Shown piece by piece: positions 10,281 to 57,822 of a stretch of 64,000 nt of DNA; the first letter of the stretch is position 1; each line of letters starts with the position of its first letter. A program made the position numbers and the translations under genes. Below the pieces are notes generated by a model that searched no databases, was not told the DNA's origin, and saw only the letters and a list, made by a program, of their open reading frames with translations. The DNA comes from Promethearchaeota archaeon (lineage in GTDB: Archaea; Asgardarchaeota; Lokiarchaeia; Sigyniarchaeales; SOKP01): NCBI GenBank assembly GCA_016840165.1, contig JAEOSU010000029.1:1-64000 (forward strand), read 5' to 3'.

Positions 10281-10742
10281 CTATTGATTTATATTTTCTT
10301 TTCTACTTTTTCTTTGCATTATGAGATAATAGATTAATACTCCTAAAAATGCCCAGAAAAAGAATGAAACAATCCAGCCTATAGCATTATCGATATAAAG
10401 AGTCCCGAACACATATGAGAAACAGGCAGCATATTCTAAAAGTATGTAAGGTATATGAAGATTGATCTTTGAGCGAAAATCTATTTTAAAAACCGTGTCT
10501 AGTAAAAACTCTGCCAATAAGTAGGTAGTAATTAATAATGTATAGATAATAAGCCTCAGATCTTTACTAACAATGATAAAATTAATCATTATCACAATTA
10601 CTACAATCATCAATGCGAAAAGAACCCAACCAAATATTCTTACTGTCTTAAATTTTTTATTTGCCATTAATAATAGAGCACTAATCATCGAAATAAAAAA
10701 GATAAAGGCAGTTATGATAAATAATCCTTCAACTAAATCCAT
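10281..10742 (-). CDS. Multi-pass membrane protein
   Basis: About five hydrophobic segments; 24 nt upstream of the next gene on the same strand. Confidence 0.75.
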   Translation of the reverse strand: MDLVEGLFIITAFIFFISMISALLLMANKKFKTVRIFGWVLFALMIVVIVIMINFIIVSKDLRLIIYTLLITTYLLAEFLLDTVFKIDFRSKINLHIPYILLEYAACFSYVFGTLYIDNAIGWIVSFFFWAFLGVLIYYLIMQRKSRKENINQ

Positions 10743-10894: not shown

Positions 10895-11581
10895 TTGCTT
10901 AATAGAATAGATCTCAAAGGATTCAAAAAAATTCAAGAAGAGTACAAGAAGGATCGCTCTAAATGCAAGAAGAAGTTAGAAGTTAAGGGAAGATGGCGGT
11001 TAGATGTTGATTATGGGCCACAGTTTGAAACTATCGTAAAAACTGAAAGAGCAGGTAATATTACAGTACAAACTGACGAAACTATAATTTTAGGTGGTGG
11101 TGGAACTGCGGTTCATCCTGTTCATTATTGTATGGTTGGATTTTGTGGATGCTTCTCTGCAGCTTTTGCTAAATGGGCTGCTATGGCAAATATTGAATTG
11201 ACGAAACTTGATATAAGGATTGTTGCCGATATTAATCTAACTACAGGATTTGGAATAGAGGATGGTATAGATGCAGTAGATGATTATAAACTTGAAATTT
11301 TTGTTGAAAGCGATGCTCCCATTGAAAAGTTAAACGAGATTCTTGAATATACCAAAAAACGTTGCTTTTGTATGTACTGTATAACAACACCTATTATTCC
11401 TAACATCGATATGATTGTAGAAGTTCCCGAAGAGAAGATCGAAGAGGCAGTGTTTATCTGTCCATCCTGTTTTAACAAAACGATGGTATTTTTGGATGAT
11501 AATACTCAGAAGTGTACAAATTGTGGTACTATTGGCTATTTTACTCGACCTACTAAAACCGGAAAAGTGTCTCAAAAATAA
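10895..11581 (+). CDS. OsmC/Ohr-family protein with C-terminal zinc ribbon
   Basis: DETIILGGGGTAVHPVHY...CGC and KRCFC (OsmC Cys positions); C-terminal CPSC...CTNC. Confidence 0.85.
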   Translation: MLNRIDLKGFKKIQEEYKKDRSKCKKKLEVKGRWRLDVDYGPQFETIVKTERAGNITVQTDETIILGGGGTAVHPVHYCMVGFCGCFSAAFAKWAAMANIELTKLDIRIVADINLTTGFGIEDGIDAVDDYKLEIFVESDAPIEKLNEILEYTKKRCFCMYCITTPIIPNIDMIVEVPEEKIEEAVFICPSCFNKTMVFLDDNTQKCTNCGTIGYFTRPTKTGKVSQK

Positions 11582-11660
11582 ATAATAATAATTATATAAT
11601 ATATTAGAATAAAATTTACAGAAAAGTAAAGAATCTAATTCAAAGGTGGAATGAGATTTT

Positions 11661-11873
11661 ATGACTGAGGAATGGCCTTTTGTGTCTGATAAGGACAATT
11701 ACGTCAAGACTTTAGAAAAGGATTTGAAGAAAGTGAAGAATCAATTATATCAAACATTACTCAACGCAAATAAAACGGTAATTGAGAACCAGAATTTGCA
11801 GAATCAATTAAATAAATGTCAGGAAGAGAATCTACACTTAAAATCTCAAATTGAAGGCTTAACCAATAAATAG
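11661..11873 (+). CDS. Small coiled-coil protein
   Basis: Heptad Leu pattern; AGGTGG SD-like sequence upstream; within a co-oriented cluster. Confidence 0.7.
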   Translation: MTEEWPFVSDKDNYVKTLEKDLKKVKNQLYQTLLNANKTVIENQNLQNQLNKCQEENLHLKSQIEGLTNK

Positions 11874-11902
11874 TAAATTATATAGAAAAGAGATGTGGTG
11901 AA

Positions 11903-12703
11903 TTGACTTTAGAAGGGAGTAAAGCAATGGAAGGAAAGAAAGCAATAGAAAATTATGTTGAATCTATTTATATATATGATAATGCCGGGGTTTGCTTAAC
12001 TAGTATTGGCTTAAAACCAGAAAATCTAGATGAAAATATTGTCTCAGGATTCTTCACTGCAATCAAAAAATTTGGGCAGAAATTAATTCCTGGTACGGTA
12101 GTTAAGTCTTTAATAATGAGTGGGCATAAACTTTTTTACAATAGCAATGAAAATATTACGTTTTGTATTCAATGTTATGATGATTTACCAAATCAAGTAA
12201 TAGAATACATCTTAAATGAAATCTCAAATAAGTTTTTAGAGATATATCAAGATCAACTTCCAATACGAGATGGTAATATCAGTTTATTTTCAGAATTCAA
12301 CGTCTATTTATCCCAATTCATGGAACGCCCACTTATTGAGAGCTTATTAGAAGATTTTGGTTATAAAGTTCTTTCAGAAGGAGTTATATTATTTGATGAG
12401 AATCAAGAAAAGATAATGTTTGCTAAAGTCCCAGAAGAATATTCCTCAAGAAAACAGATCTCTATGAGTGGGATGTTAATTAACTTTGCAAAAAAGTTAT
12501 CCTTGGAATATCAAGGAGGAGATGTACACAGTATATTAATTTCTTCTGAAAATCGATGGATATGTGTTTCGAAACGAGAATACATTTACATCATTGTATT
12601 ATTTTCAAAAACTAAAAATATAGCACTTGATATAATTGTAGAGAGAACTGAAGAAATTTTAGATAATATCTTAAAGATGTTAAGGATCGAAATAAAAAAG
12701 TAA
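11903..12703 (+). CDS. Longin-like + roadblock/profilin-like two-domain protein
   Basis: IYIYDNAGVCL...IVSGFFTAIKKFG is a longin-type signature; second domain starts EGVILFD. GGTGA SD precedes the TTG start. Confidence 0.8.
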   Translation: MTLEGSKAMEGKKAIENYVESIYIYDNAGVCLTSIGLKPENLDENIVSGFFTAIKKFGQKLIPGTVVKSLIMSGHKLFYNSNENITFCIQCYDDLPNQVIEYILNEISNKFLEIYQDQLPIRDGNISLFSEFNVYLSQFMERPLIESLLEDFGYKVLSEGVILFDENQEKIMFAKVPEEYSSRKQISMSGMLINFAKKLSLEYQGGDVHSILISSENRWICVSKREYIYIIVLFSKTKNIALDIIVERTEEILDNILKMLRIEIKK

Positions 12704-12741
12704 TTATTATAAGGCTAAACTCTATGTTAAATTTAACATAA

Positions 12742-13299
12742 ATGTTTAAAACTATAAAGGGGAGACCGTTGAAATTTGTATTTAAAATTACGATAATCGG
12801 AGATGGTGGAGTAGGTAAAACCTCTCTGATTAAAAAATATACACAAGGTACTTTTGAAGATGACTATATCTCCACAATAGGAGCTCAATTTTCTTTATAT
12901 GATCTAAATATTGATGGAGATGAATGTAAACTATACTTCTGGGATATAGCTGGCCAAAAAGAGTTTGAATTTTTACGATCTGATTTTTACGAGGAAAGCA
13001 AAGCCGCTATCATTGTCTATTCTCTTGAAAATAGTGATCTTGGAAAGCAAAGCCTTGAACATGTAATAGATTGGTATAATGATATTAAAAACCATTGCGG
13101 AGATATTCCTGTAGTTATTTTTGCTAACAAGGCAGATTTAGTAAAGGAAGGAAAATCAGAAAATGACTTCATCAAGGATTTACTTGAGAAAGATAAAATA
13201 ATAGATGTATATCGCACTTCTGCAAAAACTGGAAAAATGGTACCTGACGCATTTTACAGAATAATTAAAGAGTTGCACGATAAATACAAGGGTAATTAA
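12742..13299 (+). CDS. Rab/Ras-like small GTPase
   Basis: GDGGVGKT, STIG, WDIAGQ, NKAD, TSAK. No C-terminal Cys motif. Alternative TTG start at 12769. Confidence 0.95.
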   Translation: MFKTIKGRPLKFVFKITIIGDGGVGKTSLIKKYTQGTFEDDYISTIGAQFSLYDLNIDGDECKLYFWDIAGQKEFEFLRSDFYEESKAAIIVYSLENSDLGKQSLEHVIDWYNDIKNHCGDIPVVIFANKADLVKEGKSENDFIKDLLEKDKIIDVYRTSAKTGKMVPDAFYRIIKELHDKYKGN

Positions 13300-13366
13300 A
13301 TTCGCTAGTGTGAGTAGCAATCGTTAAAATAAAATGATTTTAATCAATAAGGAGGAATAAATTGTC

Positions 13367-13684
13367 TTGCAAGCTGAAGGAGTTATTATTTTCGATGATC
13401 TTGAAGGTAAAATTATTTTTTCCGAAGTTCCATCAGAATTTGCCACTCCGCGTCAGACATCAGTGGGTGGGATGCTGATTAATTTGGTTAAAAAATTTTC
13501 CAATGAATTTAAAGCAGGTGAAGTAAAAAGTTTAGTTATCTCCTCAGAAAAAAAAATAATTTCTATCTCAAAACGAGAACATAAGTATATTATTGTTTTA
13601 TTTCCGATAACCACTGTCATCGAACATAATATTATTTTACAAAAAACAGAAGAAATTTTTAATTCCGTTATTAATAATGGATAA
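13367..13684 (+). CDS. Stand-alone roadblock/profilin-like protein, paralog of the C-terminal domain of 11903..12703
   Basis: Ungapped alignment to that domain; AGGAGG SD before the TTG start. Confidence 0.8.
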   Translation: MQAEGVIIFDDLEGKIIFSEVPSEFATPRQTSVGGMLINLVKKFSNEFKAGEVKSLVISSEKKIISISKREHKYIIVLFPITTVIEHNIILQKTEEIFNSVINNG

Positions 13685-13700
13685 GTAAAAAGTTAATAAG

Positions 13701-14216
13701 GTGAATATAATAGGTTTAAAACGAAAGTTAATGGATAAGATGATGCCAAAAGAGTTTGGCTTTATTTCTGGCTTATTCCATGTTGGGGTATTTACTCTAC
13801 AAACAGGGATTGATGAAACTTTAGGAAGAATTGGTTATAATGATTACATTTTTCCTGCGGTGAAGGAATCGATGGAACAAGCAGAAAAATTGGGAATTGA
13901 GCCCATGATAGGAGAAAATGTTGAAGATTTTGGAGAGCGTTTCATAAAATTGTTAAAAACGTCATTATTAGTCGAAAATGCCTCCCTGAAAAAGAAAGCA
14001 GATGGTGCTTATGTATTTTCTTTAAACAACTGTTTTATGGCTAAAACGGCTCATACCGTCGCTGGAACTAAGGGAGTATGCCCGATGGCTATGGTAATGG
14101 CGGCTATGATTGAAAAATATGTAAATAAAGAAGTAACAGTGAACTATTCAGATTTAACTCCAAATGGAAGTATTACAGTCATAACACCAACTAATAGCGA
14201 TTTTGAAAGAAAGTAA
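13701..14216 (+). CDS. V4R/MetOD1-like ligand- or metal-binding protein
   Basis: YVFSLNNCFMA...H...GVCPMAMVMAAMI plus C-terminal beta hairpin; start codon uncertain. Confidence 0.65.
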   Translation: MNIIGLKRKLMDKMMPKEFGFISGLFHVGVFTLQTGIDETLGRIGYNDYIFPAVKESMEQAEKLGIEPMIGENVEDFGERFIKLLKTSLLVENASLKKKADGAYVFSLNNCFMAKTAHTVAGTKGVCPMAMVMAAMIEKYVNKEVTVNYSDLTPNGSITVITPTNSDFERK

Positions 14217-14303
14217 AAAAAAGAATTATAATAATTTTCGAAAAGTTATTTGAAATCTGGCGCAAATATCTAAAAAGAATTTTTTAGAAAAAAATTCTAT
14301 GAT

Positions 14304-16088
14304 TCAATGAATGCTTTGATGCTCAAAATATTGCTTATATAAGCTTGCATACTTCCCACCGTCAGCAAGTAGGGAAGCATGCGTTCCTTCTTCCACAATC
14401 CTTCCATGGTCTAAAACAATTATTCTATCAGCATTAATAACCGTTGATAAGCGATGGGCAATTATGATTGACGTTCGATTTGCAAGTAATTTTTGAAGTG
14501 CTTCTTGAATTATTGCTTCGGTATATGCATCCACACTTGAAGTTGCCTCGTCAAGAATAAGAATTTTTGGATTACTTAAGACAGCTCGGGCAAAACTAAT
14601 TATCTGTTTTTGACCCACTGATAACCCTTTCCCTCTCTCTCCCAATCTTGTATTTAAACCATCTGGCAAATACTTAATAATTTCTTCAGCATGAACAGTT
14701 CTAATTGCCTCATTTAGTTCTTCTTGTGAGGCATTTGGGTTCCCATAACGGATATTTTCTTCTAAAGTGCCTGAAAATAAGAAAATATCCTGTTGAACCA
14801 TCGCAATATTGTTTCTATATGAATCTAATGTCATGTCCCTGATATCAATTCCATCAATTTTAATTGATCCCCCTTGAAATTCGTAAAATCGTGCTAAAAG
14901 AGAAACTAAAGAGGTTTTTCCAGCTCCAGTATGGCCAACAATCGCCAATTTTTCTCCTTTTGATATCTTGAGATTAAAATCTTTGAAAACACCTTGATTA
15001 TCATTATACCGAAAGTTAACGTTTTGAAATACAATCTCCCCTTCAAGTTCTCCCACTTCGATAGCCTTATTGTTCTGGATAACTGAAGGTTGAGCATCAA
15101 GAATCTCTAAAATTCTTTCATATGCCGCCATACCCGTGCTTAGTTGGGGGAAAAAGGTAGCTAGAACGATAATTGGTCTAAAAAAGCTTTGTAGATAAAG
15201 AATAAAGGTTAGCAAGGTTCCAGTAGTTAAATTTCCCTCAAGAAATAATTGAGTTCCATAATAAATTACGATTAGAATTGTAACTGAGGCAATTATGTTT
15301 AAAATATGCCTCCACATATGGGTTACAGAGGTCAATTTAAAAGTTGAGCGAAAATAATCCTTATTAATCTGACTAAAGTGATAAGAGATATTCGATTCTT
15401 GTCCATAACTTTTAGAAACATGTATTCCTTCAATAGATTCTACCATTGCATTGTTTACATTTTCAATTGCATTTCTATAACTTCTACTTACGACTCTTGC
15501 CCATCTTCTTAGTGAGAACATTAGCAACAATACGATAGGGACTGCAATTAGCACGATTAAAGCTAAAAAGGGATTCAAAATCAGCAATATAGTGAAAGTC
15601 AATAAGCTTATAAGAAAATTTCCCACAGTTTCTGCAATTAAGGAAGTTATATCTCCAAAATCTAATGCATCATTAGAAACTCTGGTATTTAAAGCACCAC
15701 TTTCATACTCATCAAAAAAGCTTATACTTTGCCGCTGTAGCTTATCGAATATGTCCATACGCAAGTATTCTAAAAAGAAGGGAACAAACTTGCCGTATTC
15801 TCTCCTCCTTAAAGAAAACATTAACCATTGAATAGCAGAGGCAATAACATAAGCTATTCCAAAAAATATTATTATATTAAACTCAGTTGATAATGGAGTT
15901 TCTAGATGATCGACAGTAAATCCCACAACTAAAGGACCCAGAATTTCTACAATGGTTGCTATAAAGATAAATAATGCAACCATTACAATATTTTTTTTAA
16001 AGGGGGCTAATCTTTTTACATATCTGCCGAATAATTCACGATCAGAGTATTTTCGTTTCGGTTTCTCTTTCCTTATACTTCTATACAT
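14304..16088 (-). CDS. ABC exporter half-transporter (TMD+NBD), consensus Walker B subunit
   Basis: GHTGAGKT, LSVGQKQ, ILILDEATSSVD, IAHRL. Confidence 0.95.
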   Translation of the reverse strand: MYRSIRKEKPKRKYSDRELFGRYVKRLAPFKKNIVMVALFIFIATIVEILGPLVVGFTVDHLETPLSTEFNIIIFFGIAYVIASAIQWLMFSLRRREYGKFVPFFLEYLRMDIFDKLQRQSISFFDEYESGALNTRVSNDALDFGDITSLIAETVGNFLISLLTFTILLILNPFLALIVLIAVPIVLLLMFSLRRWARVVSRSYRNAIENVNNAMVESIEGIHVSKSYGQESNISYHFSQINKDYFRSTFKLTSVTHMWRHILNIIASVTILIVIYYGTQLFLEGNLTTGTLLTFILYLQSFFRPIIVLATFFPQLSTGMAAYERILEILDAQPSVIQNNKAIEVGELEGEIVFQNVNFRYNDNQGVFKDFNLKISKGEKLAIVGHTGAGKTSLVSLLARFYEFQGGSIKIDGIDIRDMTLDSYRNNIAMVQQDIFLFSGTLEENIRYGNPNASQEELNEAIRTVHAEEIIKYLPDGLNTRLGERGKGLSVGQKQIISFARAVLSNPKILILDEATSSVDAYTEAIIQEALQKLLANRTSIIIAHRLSTVINADRIIVLDHGRIVEEGTHASLLADGGKYASLYKQYFEHQSIH

Positions 16089-21736: not shown

Positions 21737-21945
21737 CTTAAAAATTCAACTCAGTAATAAGTTTATGATTTTCATAGCCTTTTATTAAACAATAATAGAA
21801 CTAATTAATAAAATTATTTGATATACGGTTTTAGAGGTACTAATATTTTCTAAAACAAACTTTTTAATATTAAATTAAAGATATTTTAACTAAATAAAAA
21901 CTAATAGTGGTTTTAACTTAATTTTAGCAAGGATTGGGATTTTCT

Positions 21946-23574
21946 ATGGTAAAAAAGAAGTTATTTGAAAATTTATTCAATAATTTTCTCAATCAAAATA
22001 CCGAAGTTGAAGCATTAATTGTTTCAGATGAAGAGGGGCTTGTCATTGCAGGGGAAAAACGATTAGATATAGACATCGAAATAGTGTCATTTCTAACTGC
22101 TGTAATTAACCCCATTATTGAAAGAGTGAGAGAAGAATTTTCGTTTAAAAAATTTGGGACTGCAAGTATTGATACAGAAGAACATAGGTTGTTATTTATT
22201 TTAATTAATGAAGCAACTACATTAAGTTTAGTTATGAAAAGTATGGGTTCTATAGATGATATTGCCCCTTATGCTTATTTCCTCGCAGAAAAAACAGCTC
22301 AAATCCTTGATGCTGACGAAACTGAATTAGTAGAAATTGATATTCCCGATTTTAAATTTGCAGGAGGAATATTTGATTCAACTGAACGAATAAAAAATAT
22401 TATATATCAATCTAAAGTAGAACAAGGGGGAGTCTACAGATTTAAATTTATTGTGCTCGGGGATCATGAAGTTGGTAAAACATCAATTATTAGAAGATTT
22501 GTGGAAAATAGCTTTTTAGATAAATATCGAGCTACGATCGGATTAAATATATTATCTCATGATTTTGAAGCATTTGGAAATAAGATTAGTATCATGCTTT
22601 GGGACATCGGAGCTCAAAAATTTTTTAAGCGGTATCGTAAAACATATTATAATGGAGCCCAAGCAGCATTTATTGTATTTGATTTGACAAATAGAGAATC
22701 ATTTAATAATGTAACGTACTGGCATAATGAACTGAAGGAATTTATAGAGTATATAGATTTACCCATTATAATTGTGGGAAACAAAACAGATTTAGCCGAG
22801 CAACGAGTTGTAACCCAAGAAGAAGGCATTCAATTAGCAACAGACTTATCAAAATTATCAGGTCTCGTGGAAAGTACAACTTTATCTGATTATTCTGATC
22901 TTTCTAATCTTTCTGCTTCACAAACAAAAATTTCTTATATTGAAACAAGTGCAAAAACAGGTAACCGCGTCCAAGATGCATTTAATCTGATCTCCTATAA
23001 TTTTATTCTGGTATGTGAGGAGAAGGAACAACAACTGCTAAAAGAAAAAATCTTAGATGAGATTAACTCAATTATAGATATTAATAAAAGTCTTACCCTT
23101 ACTTTTTTAAATAGTTCCGAACTTTGGAATCCAACTTTACGAATTCTCTCTGAAATTGATGGTTTAGGAAAATTATCAGAAATTAAAGATAAAAAGAAAC
23201 AAAAGCAATATGAATATAATAGTGGATTAGTTTTGAAAAGCTTTATCTTTGATTCTTATAAAGTTGTCGATTCTGATGGTGTAGTTTGTATTTTCGATGC
23301 TCGAGAGAGAAAGAGTATAGATGAGAATTGGATAAACATCCTTTCTGATATTATTAATAATTTAAAGAAAAATAAGGTATTATCAGTGGGGATAAGGGTG
23401 TCTGATGAGAAAATTTGGTCGAAATTAATTGAAAGCTTTAAATTAGACGAAGAAGCCGAAGAAAGACTAGTTTCATTGTTATTTTTTCGGATTCAAAACG
23501 ATTCTTTGTTAGATGTTTATGAATTACTCTCTGCTACATTGAACACAATAAAAAATCTTAGTTTTAGCTATTAA
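21946..23574 (+). CDS. Roadblock + Rab-like GTPase + degenerate G-domain fusion
   Basis: VEALIVSDEEGLVIA (roadblock); GDHEVGKT, ATIG, WDIGAQ, NKTD, ETSAK; C-terminal DSDGVVCIFDA. Confidence 0.88.
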   Translation: MVKKKLFENLFNNFLNQNTEVEALIVSDEEGLVIAGEKRLDIDIEIVSFLTAVINPIIERVREEFSFKKFGTASIDTEEHRLLFILINEATTLSLVMKSMGSIDDIAPYAYFLAEKTAQILDADETELVEIDIPDFKFAGGIFDSTERIKNIIYQSKVEQGGVYRFKFIVLGDHEVGKTSIIRRFVENSFLDKYRATIGLNILSHDFEAFGNKISIMLWDIGAQKFFKRYRKTYYNGAQAAFIVFDLTNRESFNNVTYWHNELKEFIEYIDLPIIIVGNKTDLAEQRVVTQEEGIQLATDLSKLSGLVESTTLSDYSDLSNLSASQTKISYIETSAKTGNRVQDAFNLISYNFILVCEEKEQQLLKEKILDEINSIIDINKSLTLTFLNSSELWNPTLRILSEIDGLGKLSEIKDKKKQKQYEYNSGLVLKSFIFDSYKVVDSDGVVCIFDARERKSIDENWINILSDIINNLKKNKVLSVGIRVSDEKIWSKLIESFKLDEEAEERLVSLLFFRIQNDSLLDVYELLSATLNTIKNLSFSY

Positions 23575-57069: not shown

Positions 57070-57822
57070 ATGAAGATTCATTCTTTATTCATTCTAAACA
57101 AAACTGGCGCTTGTATCTACAGTAGAAATTTCACAGAAGATTTTAGAAATATCGAACCTAACTTGATTACGCCTTTTTTTTCAGCAATTTTCTCATTTTC
57201 AGAAAACGTAATCTCACAAAAGACACCGGAGGTATTGGAAATGGGAGGATTTCGATTTGTCTTTCAAATAAAGGAAGAATTTATTTATACGATATTATCA
57301 GATTCTAGTGTAAGCTTGCTTTTTATAAAATCACGTTTGAAAACTATTACTAAGGAATTCGAAAATTTTTTGGAACAAAATGCAATTGAAGATTATGAAA
57401 TAGTTCAGAACGAAGAATTTGATGAAAAAATAGACGGAATTATCACGGGGGATGATATCATCACCAATAGTAAAGTTCTTTATAAAAAAATCATAGATCT
57501 TATTAAAAAACTAGTTTATGAAAATGAAATTTTAGGAGCTGCTTTATTTGCTATTAATGGAAAGGTTATCTATACCTCTCTTCCACAAAATATACTATTA
57601 TCCTCTATCAAAGAATTGGAAATTCGTTTTATGGTGGCTAATGAGTTTGATGAGACCTTCTATAGTCTAGAAAACGATCAAAGAGTTTTTTCTAAGCGTA
57701 TTAGAATTCCGTGGAAACTAGAACCCCTAATAATTGTAGTTCTATTTGACTCTGGTGTACCTACTGGTATGGCTGAAGTAAACTTAGATAAAATAGTTAA
57801 AAATATTGAAAATATTATCTAA
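57070..57822 (+). CDS. Longin + roadblock-like two-domain protein
   Basis: LFILNKTGACIYSRNF...LITPFFSAIFSF (longin); ILGAALFAINGKVIYTSL (roadblock-like). Confidence 0.8.
   Translation: MKIHSLFILNKTGACIYSRNFTEDFRNIEPNLITPFFSAIFSFSENVISQKTPEVLEMGGFRFVFQIKEEFIYTILSDSSVSLLFIKSRLKTITKEFENFLEQNAIEDYEIVQNEEFDEKIDGIITGDDIITNSKVLYKKIIDLIKKLVYENEILGAALFAINGKVIYTSLPQNILLSSIKELEIRFMVANEFDETFYSLENDQRVFSKRIRIPWKLEPLIIVVLFDSGVPTGMAEVNLDKIVKNIENII

Follow-up and report, generated by a model that had tools for sequence, protein, structure and literature searches.

A conserved six-gene cluster in a Promethearchaeota archaeon joins a Rab-like GTPase to longin, roadblock, V4R-fold and OsmC-like genes

Asgard archaea carry dozens of eukaryote-like small GTPases together with many longin, roadblock and V4R/TRAPPC3-like proteins. 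Which of these proteins work with which GTPase? The GTPase genes of MK-D1 generally lie outside operons with such genes and their partners are hard to predict (Tran et al., 2024; PMC10933270), few conserved neighborhoods have been described among genes of this kind (Liu et al., bioRxiv 10.1101/2020.10.19.343400), and an operon analysis of Loki GTPases has been listed as an open question (Dey et al., 2016). The question was addressed at a cluster of six genes, O1 to O6, in a 64,000-nucleotide stretch of DNA from a Promethearchaeota archaeon (contig JAEOSU010000029.1, positions 1 to 64,000; the whole stretch is termed the window). The genes encode, in order, an OsmC-like protein with a zinc ribbon, a short coiled coil, a longin-roadblock protein, a Rab-like small GTPase, a stand-alone roadblock-like protein and a protein of the V4R/Bet3/H-NOX superfold (Table 1). 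With moderate confidence the cluster is read as a conserved, operon-like cassette in which one Rab-like GTPase is accompanied by a likely dedicated set of regulators and sensors, and in which two modules have merged.

Conservation of the cluster and of its two modules

The gene linkages form the strongest evidence and, like the genes, their folds and domains and the conserved residues, were observed directly. The full order O1 to O6 is kept at loci L010, L011, L012, L014 and L015 and at G177, G233, G247, G241 and G236; the L- and G-labelled loci may partly come from the same genomes, and they amount to at least six other species-level Loki-type genomes. Relatives are labelled Lokiarchaeota, Promethearchaeota or Helarchaeota. 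None of the genes flanking the cluster in the window was found next to it in L010-L015, the only trace being a weak ABC-protein match ∼6.5 kb away in L014. The six-gene arrangement exceeds chance.

Module 1 comprises O1, O2 and O4. Full-length O1 orthologues (E < 1e-100) were located in 18 of 400 Asgard genomes, and all 18 have O2 directly after O1 and carry an O4 orthologue (E 1e-63 to 1e-77) in the cluster, which bears out the inclusion of OsmC in the initial annotation of the locus. Three gene orders were recovered: O1-O2-O3-O4, O1-O2-O4 and O4-O1-O2. The linkage has therefore outlasted rearrangement, which argues for a joint function.

Module 2 comprises an O3-like and an O6-like gene. O6 relatives were detected in 48 of the 400 genomes, and an O3-like gene adjoins the O6-like gene in 26 of 26 evaluable loci. 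Three versions of the pair were distinguished. Version 1 consists of orthologues with 47-56% identity, from three other families, in which the O3 gene comes first. Version 2 consists of paralogues with 22-31% identity that carry an N-terminal membrane helix and lie in reversed order; this would be a membrane-anchored form, and a GTPase gene is lacking out to ∼7 kb. Version 3 consists of a protein of ∼370 amino acids with a Fuz_longin_1-type N-terminus and a protein of ∼355 amino acids with an O6-like domain.

The two modules meet in more than one way. They are interleaved in this window, they lie in series as O4-O1-O2-O3-O6 on the Helarchaeota-labelled contig L006, where the gene ends overlap or are separated by 4 bases, and at G185, G225 and G212 the O1-O2-O4 triad is divergently adjacent (back to back) to a version-3 pair. 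The six-gene cassette is a lineage-specific merger of two older, separately conserved modules. The initial annotation had proposed a self-contained cassette; the conserved linkage agrees with this, and the merger speaks against an indivisible unit.

Domains and conserved residues of the encoded proteins

All six domain calls of the initial annotation were upheld, including two that Pfam did not see (roadblock and V4R-like). O4 matched Pfam Ras at 7.8e-39 and its top PDB matches were all Rabs, with Rab23 first at 1.8e-26 and Rab35, Ypt1 and Rab8A following. The G1-G5 motifs are intact (GDGGVGKT, T45, WDIAGQ, NKAD and SAK) and are conserved in 20 orthologues. A C-terminal Cys, as required for a prenylation motif, was found in none of these 20, O4 itself ending ...HDKYKGN, and O4 is therefore termed Rab-like and not a canonical Rab. 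No redox-relevant Cys specific to O4 was identified: C119 is invariant but common to paralogues, and C62 is variable. Ser44 (window 12871-12873), just before the switch I Thr, is invariant in the 20 orthologues and replaced by Lys in four close paralogues of the same genome; this position may determine which partners are recognized. An MglA-type assignment of O4 was rejected because its DxxGQ motif is ordinary and its best matches are Rab-like.

The N-terminal half of O3 is a longin domain of the MON1/FUZ first-longin type, and its C-terminal half is a roadblock domain. Against Pfam Longin (PF13774) it scored 17.7 bits, under the cut-off of 26.2, yet it was the best match to PF13774 in the genome; the cut-off of the alternative longin family PF19036 was not reached either. 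In hhalign comparisons the longin half of O3 aligned with three same-genome Fuz_longin_1 proteins at 99.3% probability (E 7e-21, 132 columns), and the C-terminal family aligned with same-genome Robl_LC7 proteins with 96.2% probability (E 2.7e-9, 82 columns); crossed controls, in which longin and roadblock were swapped, gave 47% and 5%. The alignment profile also matched the Sec22b longin domain (E 0.11), over the corresponding longin region of O3, and PDB entry 9jue, a Roadblock/LC7 protein (E 0.02). An O3 paralogue (L040:1991-2734) exceeded the Pfam Robl_LC7 cut-off, with 27.9 bits against 23.

The Pfam Robl_LC7 model (PF03259) gave no match to O5 or O3 at E values up to 1 in the family search of the genome. 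O5 is 49% identical to residues 158-257 of O3 over 100 residues (BLASTP, E 1e-32). A hidden Markov model (HMM) made from same-genome Robl_LC7 proteins found O5 at 2.6e-5, and an HMM of O5 and the O3 C-terminal domain found those proteins reciprocally. O5 is best explained as a duplicate of the O3 C-terminal roadblock domain that arose as the GTPase gene came between O3 and O6. It is taken to be the derived copy because L006 is without O5.

O6 had no Pfam or NCBIfam match, the families covered including V4R (PF02830), MetOD1 (PF18546) and TRAPP (PF04051). One of 85 members of the O6 superfamily showed a weak MetOD1 match (E 0.009), and the O6 alignment profile, when run against the PDB, produced nothing beyond chance-level matches (E 0.85 or worse). 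Proteins of the V4R/Bet3 fold bind small hydrophobic ligands and Zn. An AlphaFold2 (AF2) model from the single sequence was poor, with a predicted local distance difference test score (pLDDT) of 58.8, and was replaced by a model from the 85-sequence alignment (pLDDT 91.1, predicted template modelling score 0.87). Nearly all Foldseek matches listed for this model, and all of the top 49, were PoxR/MopR/DmpR, TRAPPC3/Bet3, H-NOX, BcsD or YslB, with probabilities of 0.97-1.00 for the PoxR, MopR and DmpR chains.

Exhaustive VIA comparison of the O6 model with 48,161 chains ranked the V4R protein MJ1460 first (Z 6.7), followed by Thor-TRAPPC3 (Z 6.3). The first 17 rows all belong to the same superfold (Z 6.7 to 4.6); the CdpR regulator comes next at 4.4, and other folds appear from there. 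Z scores were 6.6 for YslB, 6.3-6.9 for BcsD, 6.2-6.6 for H-NOX and 5.1-5.3 for PoxR, DmpR and MopR. For O6, alignments of 136-140 residues were obtained with Thor-TRAPPC3 and with 7b6d chain F, a core subunit of fly TRAPP (Z 5.8-6.3). Its nearest neighbors among predicted structures are RdxA_C-type and V4R clusters, with template modelling (TM) scores of 0.60-0.66.

Residues H17 and C101-x6-H108-x8-C117-P118 (numbered from the probable start at 13731) are invariant in the O6 family alignment. The His/Cys/His/Cys cluster is read as a putative metal site, comparable to the Zn site of Thor-TRAPPC3 and PoxR (PMC10933270); the three-Cys cluster of V4R/MetOD1 has another spacing and other types of ligand. 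Relatives within the O6 superfamily are fused to receiver, CBS and AsnC-type helix-turn-helix (HTH) domains, and because of these fusions the superfamily is regarded as a signalling module. Similar signalling-domain fusions occur in V4R/MetOD1 domains with Cys clusters (PMC5847659). No clear case of a longin-O6 fusion was found with custom HMMs among 143 representative O6 relatives. The predicted O3-O6 complex had an ipSAE of 0.02 against a mark of 0.32, which speaks neither for nor against binding.

The TRAPP core is typified by the pairing of a longin protein with a Bet3-superfold protein, and the initial annotation had accordingly described the cluster as built from TRAPP-like parts. On this account the O3 longin domain and O6 would be orthologous forerunners of the TRAPP core and would act as a Rab guanine nucleotide exchange factor (GEF) in the manner of TRAPP, as could be suggested by the 136-140-residue alignments of O6 with the two TRAPP chains and by the presence of Ypt1/Rab1 among the best solved relatives of O4. 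Kinship specific to TRAPP was not upheld, however: O6 is no nearer to Bet3/TRAPPC3 than to archaeal V4R, H-NOX, BcsD or YslB, is without a Pfam TRAPP match, and has RdxA_C-type and V4R clusters as its nearest predicted-structure neighbors. Moreover, there is one Bet3-fold gene and one longin gene where TRAPP has several of each, O6 is single-copy in the genome, and the O3 longin domain resembles the MON1/FUZ type, not the sedlin/Bet5 type. A true proto-TRAPP is considered highly improbable.

O1 contains an OsmC-like domain (approximately residues 52-167) and a C-terminal four-Cys zinc ribbon (C189, C192, C207 and C210). It scored above the Pfam OsmC (PF02566) cut-off, with 48.5 bits against 27.5 (E 1.3e-12), and below that of the NCBIfam ‘OsmC-related (seleno)protein' family, with 65.9 bits against 95. 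The best PDB match was the OsmC-like protein 3cje (5.8e-5). OsmC/Ohr proteins are organic-hydroperoxide reductases that act via two cysteines. C86 and C157 of O1 align with Cys positions of 3cje, so that both canonical (peroxidatic and resolving) positions are kept. In 19 zinc-ribbon orthologues C24, H74, C79, C157, C159, C162 and the four ribbon cysteines are invariant; C86 is Cys in 18 of the 19 and an unreadable X in the remaining one. O1 is far richer in cysteine than an ordinary OsmC. O2 opens with a conserved E-E-W-P-Y/F motif, after which comes a heptad-patterned helix predicted to form a coiled coil. When 10 homologues were aligned, 21 columns were invariant; a family search returned weak matches to coiled-coil families only.

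The genomic association of O1 with the GTPase is real; its ‘redox-coupled' character, as the initial annotation put it, we infer from the conserved cysteines alone. The retention of both canonical cysteines fits a working enzyme, and O1, held by O2, might then be the output of the system, a hydroperoxide-reducing protein that the GTPase switch recruits or activates, for example at a membrane against lipid hydroperoxides; the N-terminal membrane helix of O6 paralogues hints at such a setting. The extra invariant C24, H74, C79, C159 and C162 together with the zinc ribbon look more like an elaboration for metal or redox sensing, however, and the cluster has no gene for a thiol reductant partner. 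An output role of this kind is decidedly unlikely.

Locus layout and related gene neighborhoods

The initial annotation gave six co-oriented genes with gaps of 16-79 bp and opposite-strand borders, and the open reading frame (ORF) coordinates match this exactly (Table 1). The gaps between O1 and O6 are, in order, 79, 29, 38, 67 and 16 bp. Both flanks are formed by genes on the − strand: upstream lie two small membrane or zinc-ribbon proteins, with the gene at 10281-10742 bordering O1, and downstream two ABC transporter genes, the nearer at 14304-16088. A count of T-runs of five or more found none in any of the five internal gaps. The first intergenic run of this length past the cluster is a T6, 64 bases beyond the O6 stop; T5-T6 runs are also present inside coding regions, which weakens the T6 as evidence of a terminator. 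The short gaps and the lack of internal T-runs fit a single transcription unit and are no proof of one.

Most O6 homologues are 157-161 amino acids long, and their first residue corresponds to the Met codon at 13731 or to a site just beyond it. For this reason the true start of O6 is probably the ATG at 13731 and not the GTG at 13701.

Table 1. Coordinates of the cluster genes, of the T-run beyond them and of the version-3 pairs of module 2
Feature	Position	Strand	Evidence
O1 (OsmC-like + zinc ribbon)	10895..11581	+	ORF list, Pfam OsmC
O2 (70-aa coiled coil)	11661..11873	+	Alignment, position directly after O1
O3 (longin + roadblock)	11903..12703	+	hhalign to same-genome family members
O4 (Rab-like small GTPase)	12742..13299	+	Pfam Ras, PDB matches
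O5 (stand-alone roadblock-like)	13367..13684	+	BLASTP to O3, HMM, hhalign
O6 (V4R/Bet3/H-NOX superfold)	13701..14216	+	AF2 model, Foldseek, VIA
T6 run, possible archaeal terminator	14280..14285	+	First intergenic T≥5 run past cluster; weak evidence
Version-3 pairs	L065:5878-8128; L096:3671-5979; L097:3593-5901; L098:7741-10036

The host genome comprises 3.6 Mb in 105 contigs, with ∼31% G+C around the cluster and 55 small-GTPase matches. The public sequencing runs listed as containing the DNA stretch were all DNA metagenomes, from sediment (marine sediment) and soil. By tblastn no second copies of O1, O2, O3, O5 or O6 were found in the host genome, and the four close paralogues of O4 that it contains (54-57% identity) are therefore without this partner set. 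Two of the four have a gene with a weak longin-profile match directly upstream, on contigs C88 (8.5e-5) and C29 (1.7e-7). A third of these paralogues, on contig C3 (L002:356-901, 54% identity), has a gene for a 98-amino acid thioredoxin-like protein (L002:17-313, − strand) 42 bp downstream on the same strand. On contig C14 (− strand) a 342-amino acid Arf-like GTPase fusion is directly followed by a 202-amino acid protein with sub-threshold V4R and MetOD1 matches; the two genes, at L111:3658-4266 and L111:4375-5403, make up a second pairing of a GTPase with a V4R-like gene in the host genome. The window itself contains several more genes of GTPase systems, among them, at 21934-23574, a 546-amino acid roadblock-GTPase fusion and, at 57070-57822, a 250-amino acid longin/roadblock protein, both from roadblock/longin HMM matches.

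Related arrangements were also recorded in other genomes. Tandem double-OsmC fusions of ∼446-562 amino acids, without a zinc ribbon and with each half 50-66% identical to O1 (L104-L109), lie just downstream of stand-alone genes for longin proteins of 130-134 amino acids in several Loki-type genomes (for example L106:5179-5577 and L106:5745-7085), a second association of OsmC with longin. At G246, which has the O4-O1-O2 arrangement, the coiled-coil gene is followed on the same strand by two genes of the low-molecular-weight phosphotyrosine phosphatase/ArsC type and a macro-domain gene (L101:4819-5800, − strand). Version-2 O6 paralogues are ∼190-215 amino acids long (L030-L043, L052-L064) and are always followed by the O3-like gene, as in L054:7889-8482 and L054:7116-7892. 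The version-3 pair of G261 lies near a 345-amino acid GTPase fusion. Singly, the neighborhoods of the three O4 paralogues, the C14 pair and the double-OsmC fusions are anecdotal; together they make a functional tie of this GTPase lineage with longin, V4R-fold and thiol proteins more plausible.

Proposed mechanism and relation to known systems

MglA and the Rags are targets of roadblock dimers, and longin dimers provide the catalytic sites both of GEFs (Mon1-Ccz1, TRAPP and DENN) and of GTPase-activating proteins (GAPs; FLCN, GATOR1 and C9orf72). By comparison, the O3 roadblock domain would pair with O5, as in MglB, Ragulator and the Rags, and the O3·O5 platform would set the nucleotide state of O4. 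Given the MON1/FUZ first-longin type of the longin domain in O3, the platform would more probably act like an exchange factor than like a GAP. O6 would be a constant co-subunit of O3 that brings in a small-molecule or metal-dependent input, and through O1-O2 the switch would be linked with thiol or peroxide chemistry, O1-O2 being either a sensor or the controlled enzyme. We infer the protein contacts, the direction of signalling, the choice of GEF over GAP and the redox role from the behavior of these folds elsewhere. In a more specific form, the O3/O5 platform together with O6 would be a miniature TRAPP-like exchange factor that activates O4 and is gated by thiol or peroxide, with O1-O2 switching it by redox state; this form is very unlikely. 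If true, it would provide a prokaryotic precedent in two respects, for the principle of a longin plus Bet3-fold GEF and for a Rab-type switch that redox state controls directly.

Several findings weigh against the cassette reading. For most O3-O6 pairs in other lineages neither a GTPase nor an OsmC gene lies within ∼7 kb, and at G141, G143 and G130 the O1-O2-O4 triad stands without an O3/O6-type neighbor; since the modules occur singly in other lineages, each can work alone. The catalytic Gln of O4 is replaced by Glu in 6 of the 20 orthologues, so that GTPase chemistry may vary by lineage. No catalytic residue, such as an invariant Arg, is conserved across the O3 family, and the fold-match scores of O6 are moderate (Z 5-7, TM 0.40-0.50 against the PDB).

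The separate occurrence of the modules would suit two independent systems lying side by side, in which the O3/O6 pair serves a different, unlinked client and the interleaving is a neutral rearrangement; the eukaryotic-signature genes of Asgard archaea are described as having patchy phyletic patterns and as readily transferred, lost or duplicated (Liu et al., bioRxiv 10.1101/2020.10.19.343400). Such a neutral origin is unlikely, however, given that the modules are joined in three geometries and with two paralogous versions of the pair, that O4 is placed between O3 and O5/O6 in an order kept in at least six species, and that genes with a weak longin-profile match precede two paralogous GTPases of the host genome.

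As a cassette, the cluster resembles several known systems in part. With MglA-MglB and related pairs, in which MglB is a GAP, it shares the placement of a Ras-superfamily GTPase gene beside a roadblock gene. MglA has a variant G3 motif, whereas the G3 motif of the Rab-like O4 is an ordinary DxxGQ (WDIAGQ), and the cluster adds longin, V4R-fold and OsmC genes. With the tri-longin Rab GEFs (Mon1-Ccz1, Fuzzy-Inturned and HPS1-HPS4) it shares an N-terminal domain of O3 that is nearest to the Pfam ‘first longin domain of FUZ, MON1 and HPS1', a second longin/roadblock-type domain that follows in O3, and a Rab-like client gene. Unlike these GEFs, O3 has two domains and not three, a Ccz1-like second longin subunit is missing, and the partners are roadblock and V4R-fold proteins.

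O1 is like OsmC/Ohr proteins in exceeding the Pfam threshold and in keeping both canonical cysteine positions, and unlike them in having five more invariant Cys/His residues, a zinc ribbon, an obligatory coiled-coil neighbor and a link to a Rab-like GTPase. Among the V4R/MetOD1 proteins (PoxR, MopR, DmpR and MJ1460) O6 has its best fold match (MJ1460), and its relatives have MetOD1-like domain fusions; O6 also has a conserved Cys/His cluster, of differing spacing and ligand types. It differs in being without a Pfam match, in standing alone and in its genomic linkage with a longin-roadblock gene, a setting in which V4R/MetOD1 domains are not known to occur. Structures of Thor-Rab, roadblock and TRAPPC3 are available (Tran et al., 2024; PMC10933270; TRAPPC3 PDB 7yh2 and 7yh3). 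Relative to the TRAPP core and Thor-TRAPPC3, the superfold of O6 (∼136 residues, Z 6.2-6.3), a probable Zn site near the equivalent place and the pairing with a longin protein are shared, whereas the sequence families differ, the putative O6 ligands are His/Cys/His/Cys against four Cys, and the subunits are far fewer.

A conserved Asgard neighborhood of LAMTOR1-like, Rab-like and DENN genes has been proposed as a GEF module (Liu et al., bioRxiv 10.1101/2020.10.19.343400, later Nature 2021). There, too, a Rab-like GTPase is joined to roadblock-superfamily regulators; the present cluster is without DENN and instead has the longin-roadblock gene, the duplicated roadblock, the V4R-fold gene and the pair of OsmC-zinc ribbon and coiled-coil genes. 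Neither V4R/TRAPP nor OsmC is mentioned in that study, and none of the papers covered by a full-text search treats OsmC, Asgard archaea and a GTPase together.

The cluster assigns to one Rab-like GTPase five candidate partners that are conserved across species, in a set small enough to be reconstituted. The conserved OsmC link suggests a thiol or peroxide input or output, which was not found mentioned for archaeal small GTPases in the literature searched.

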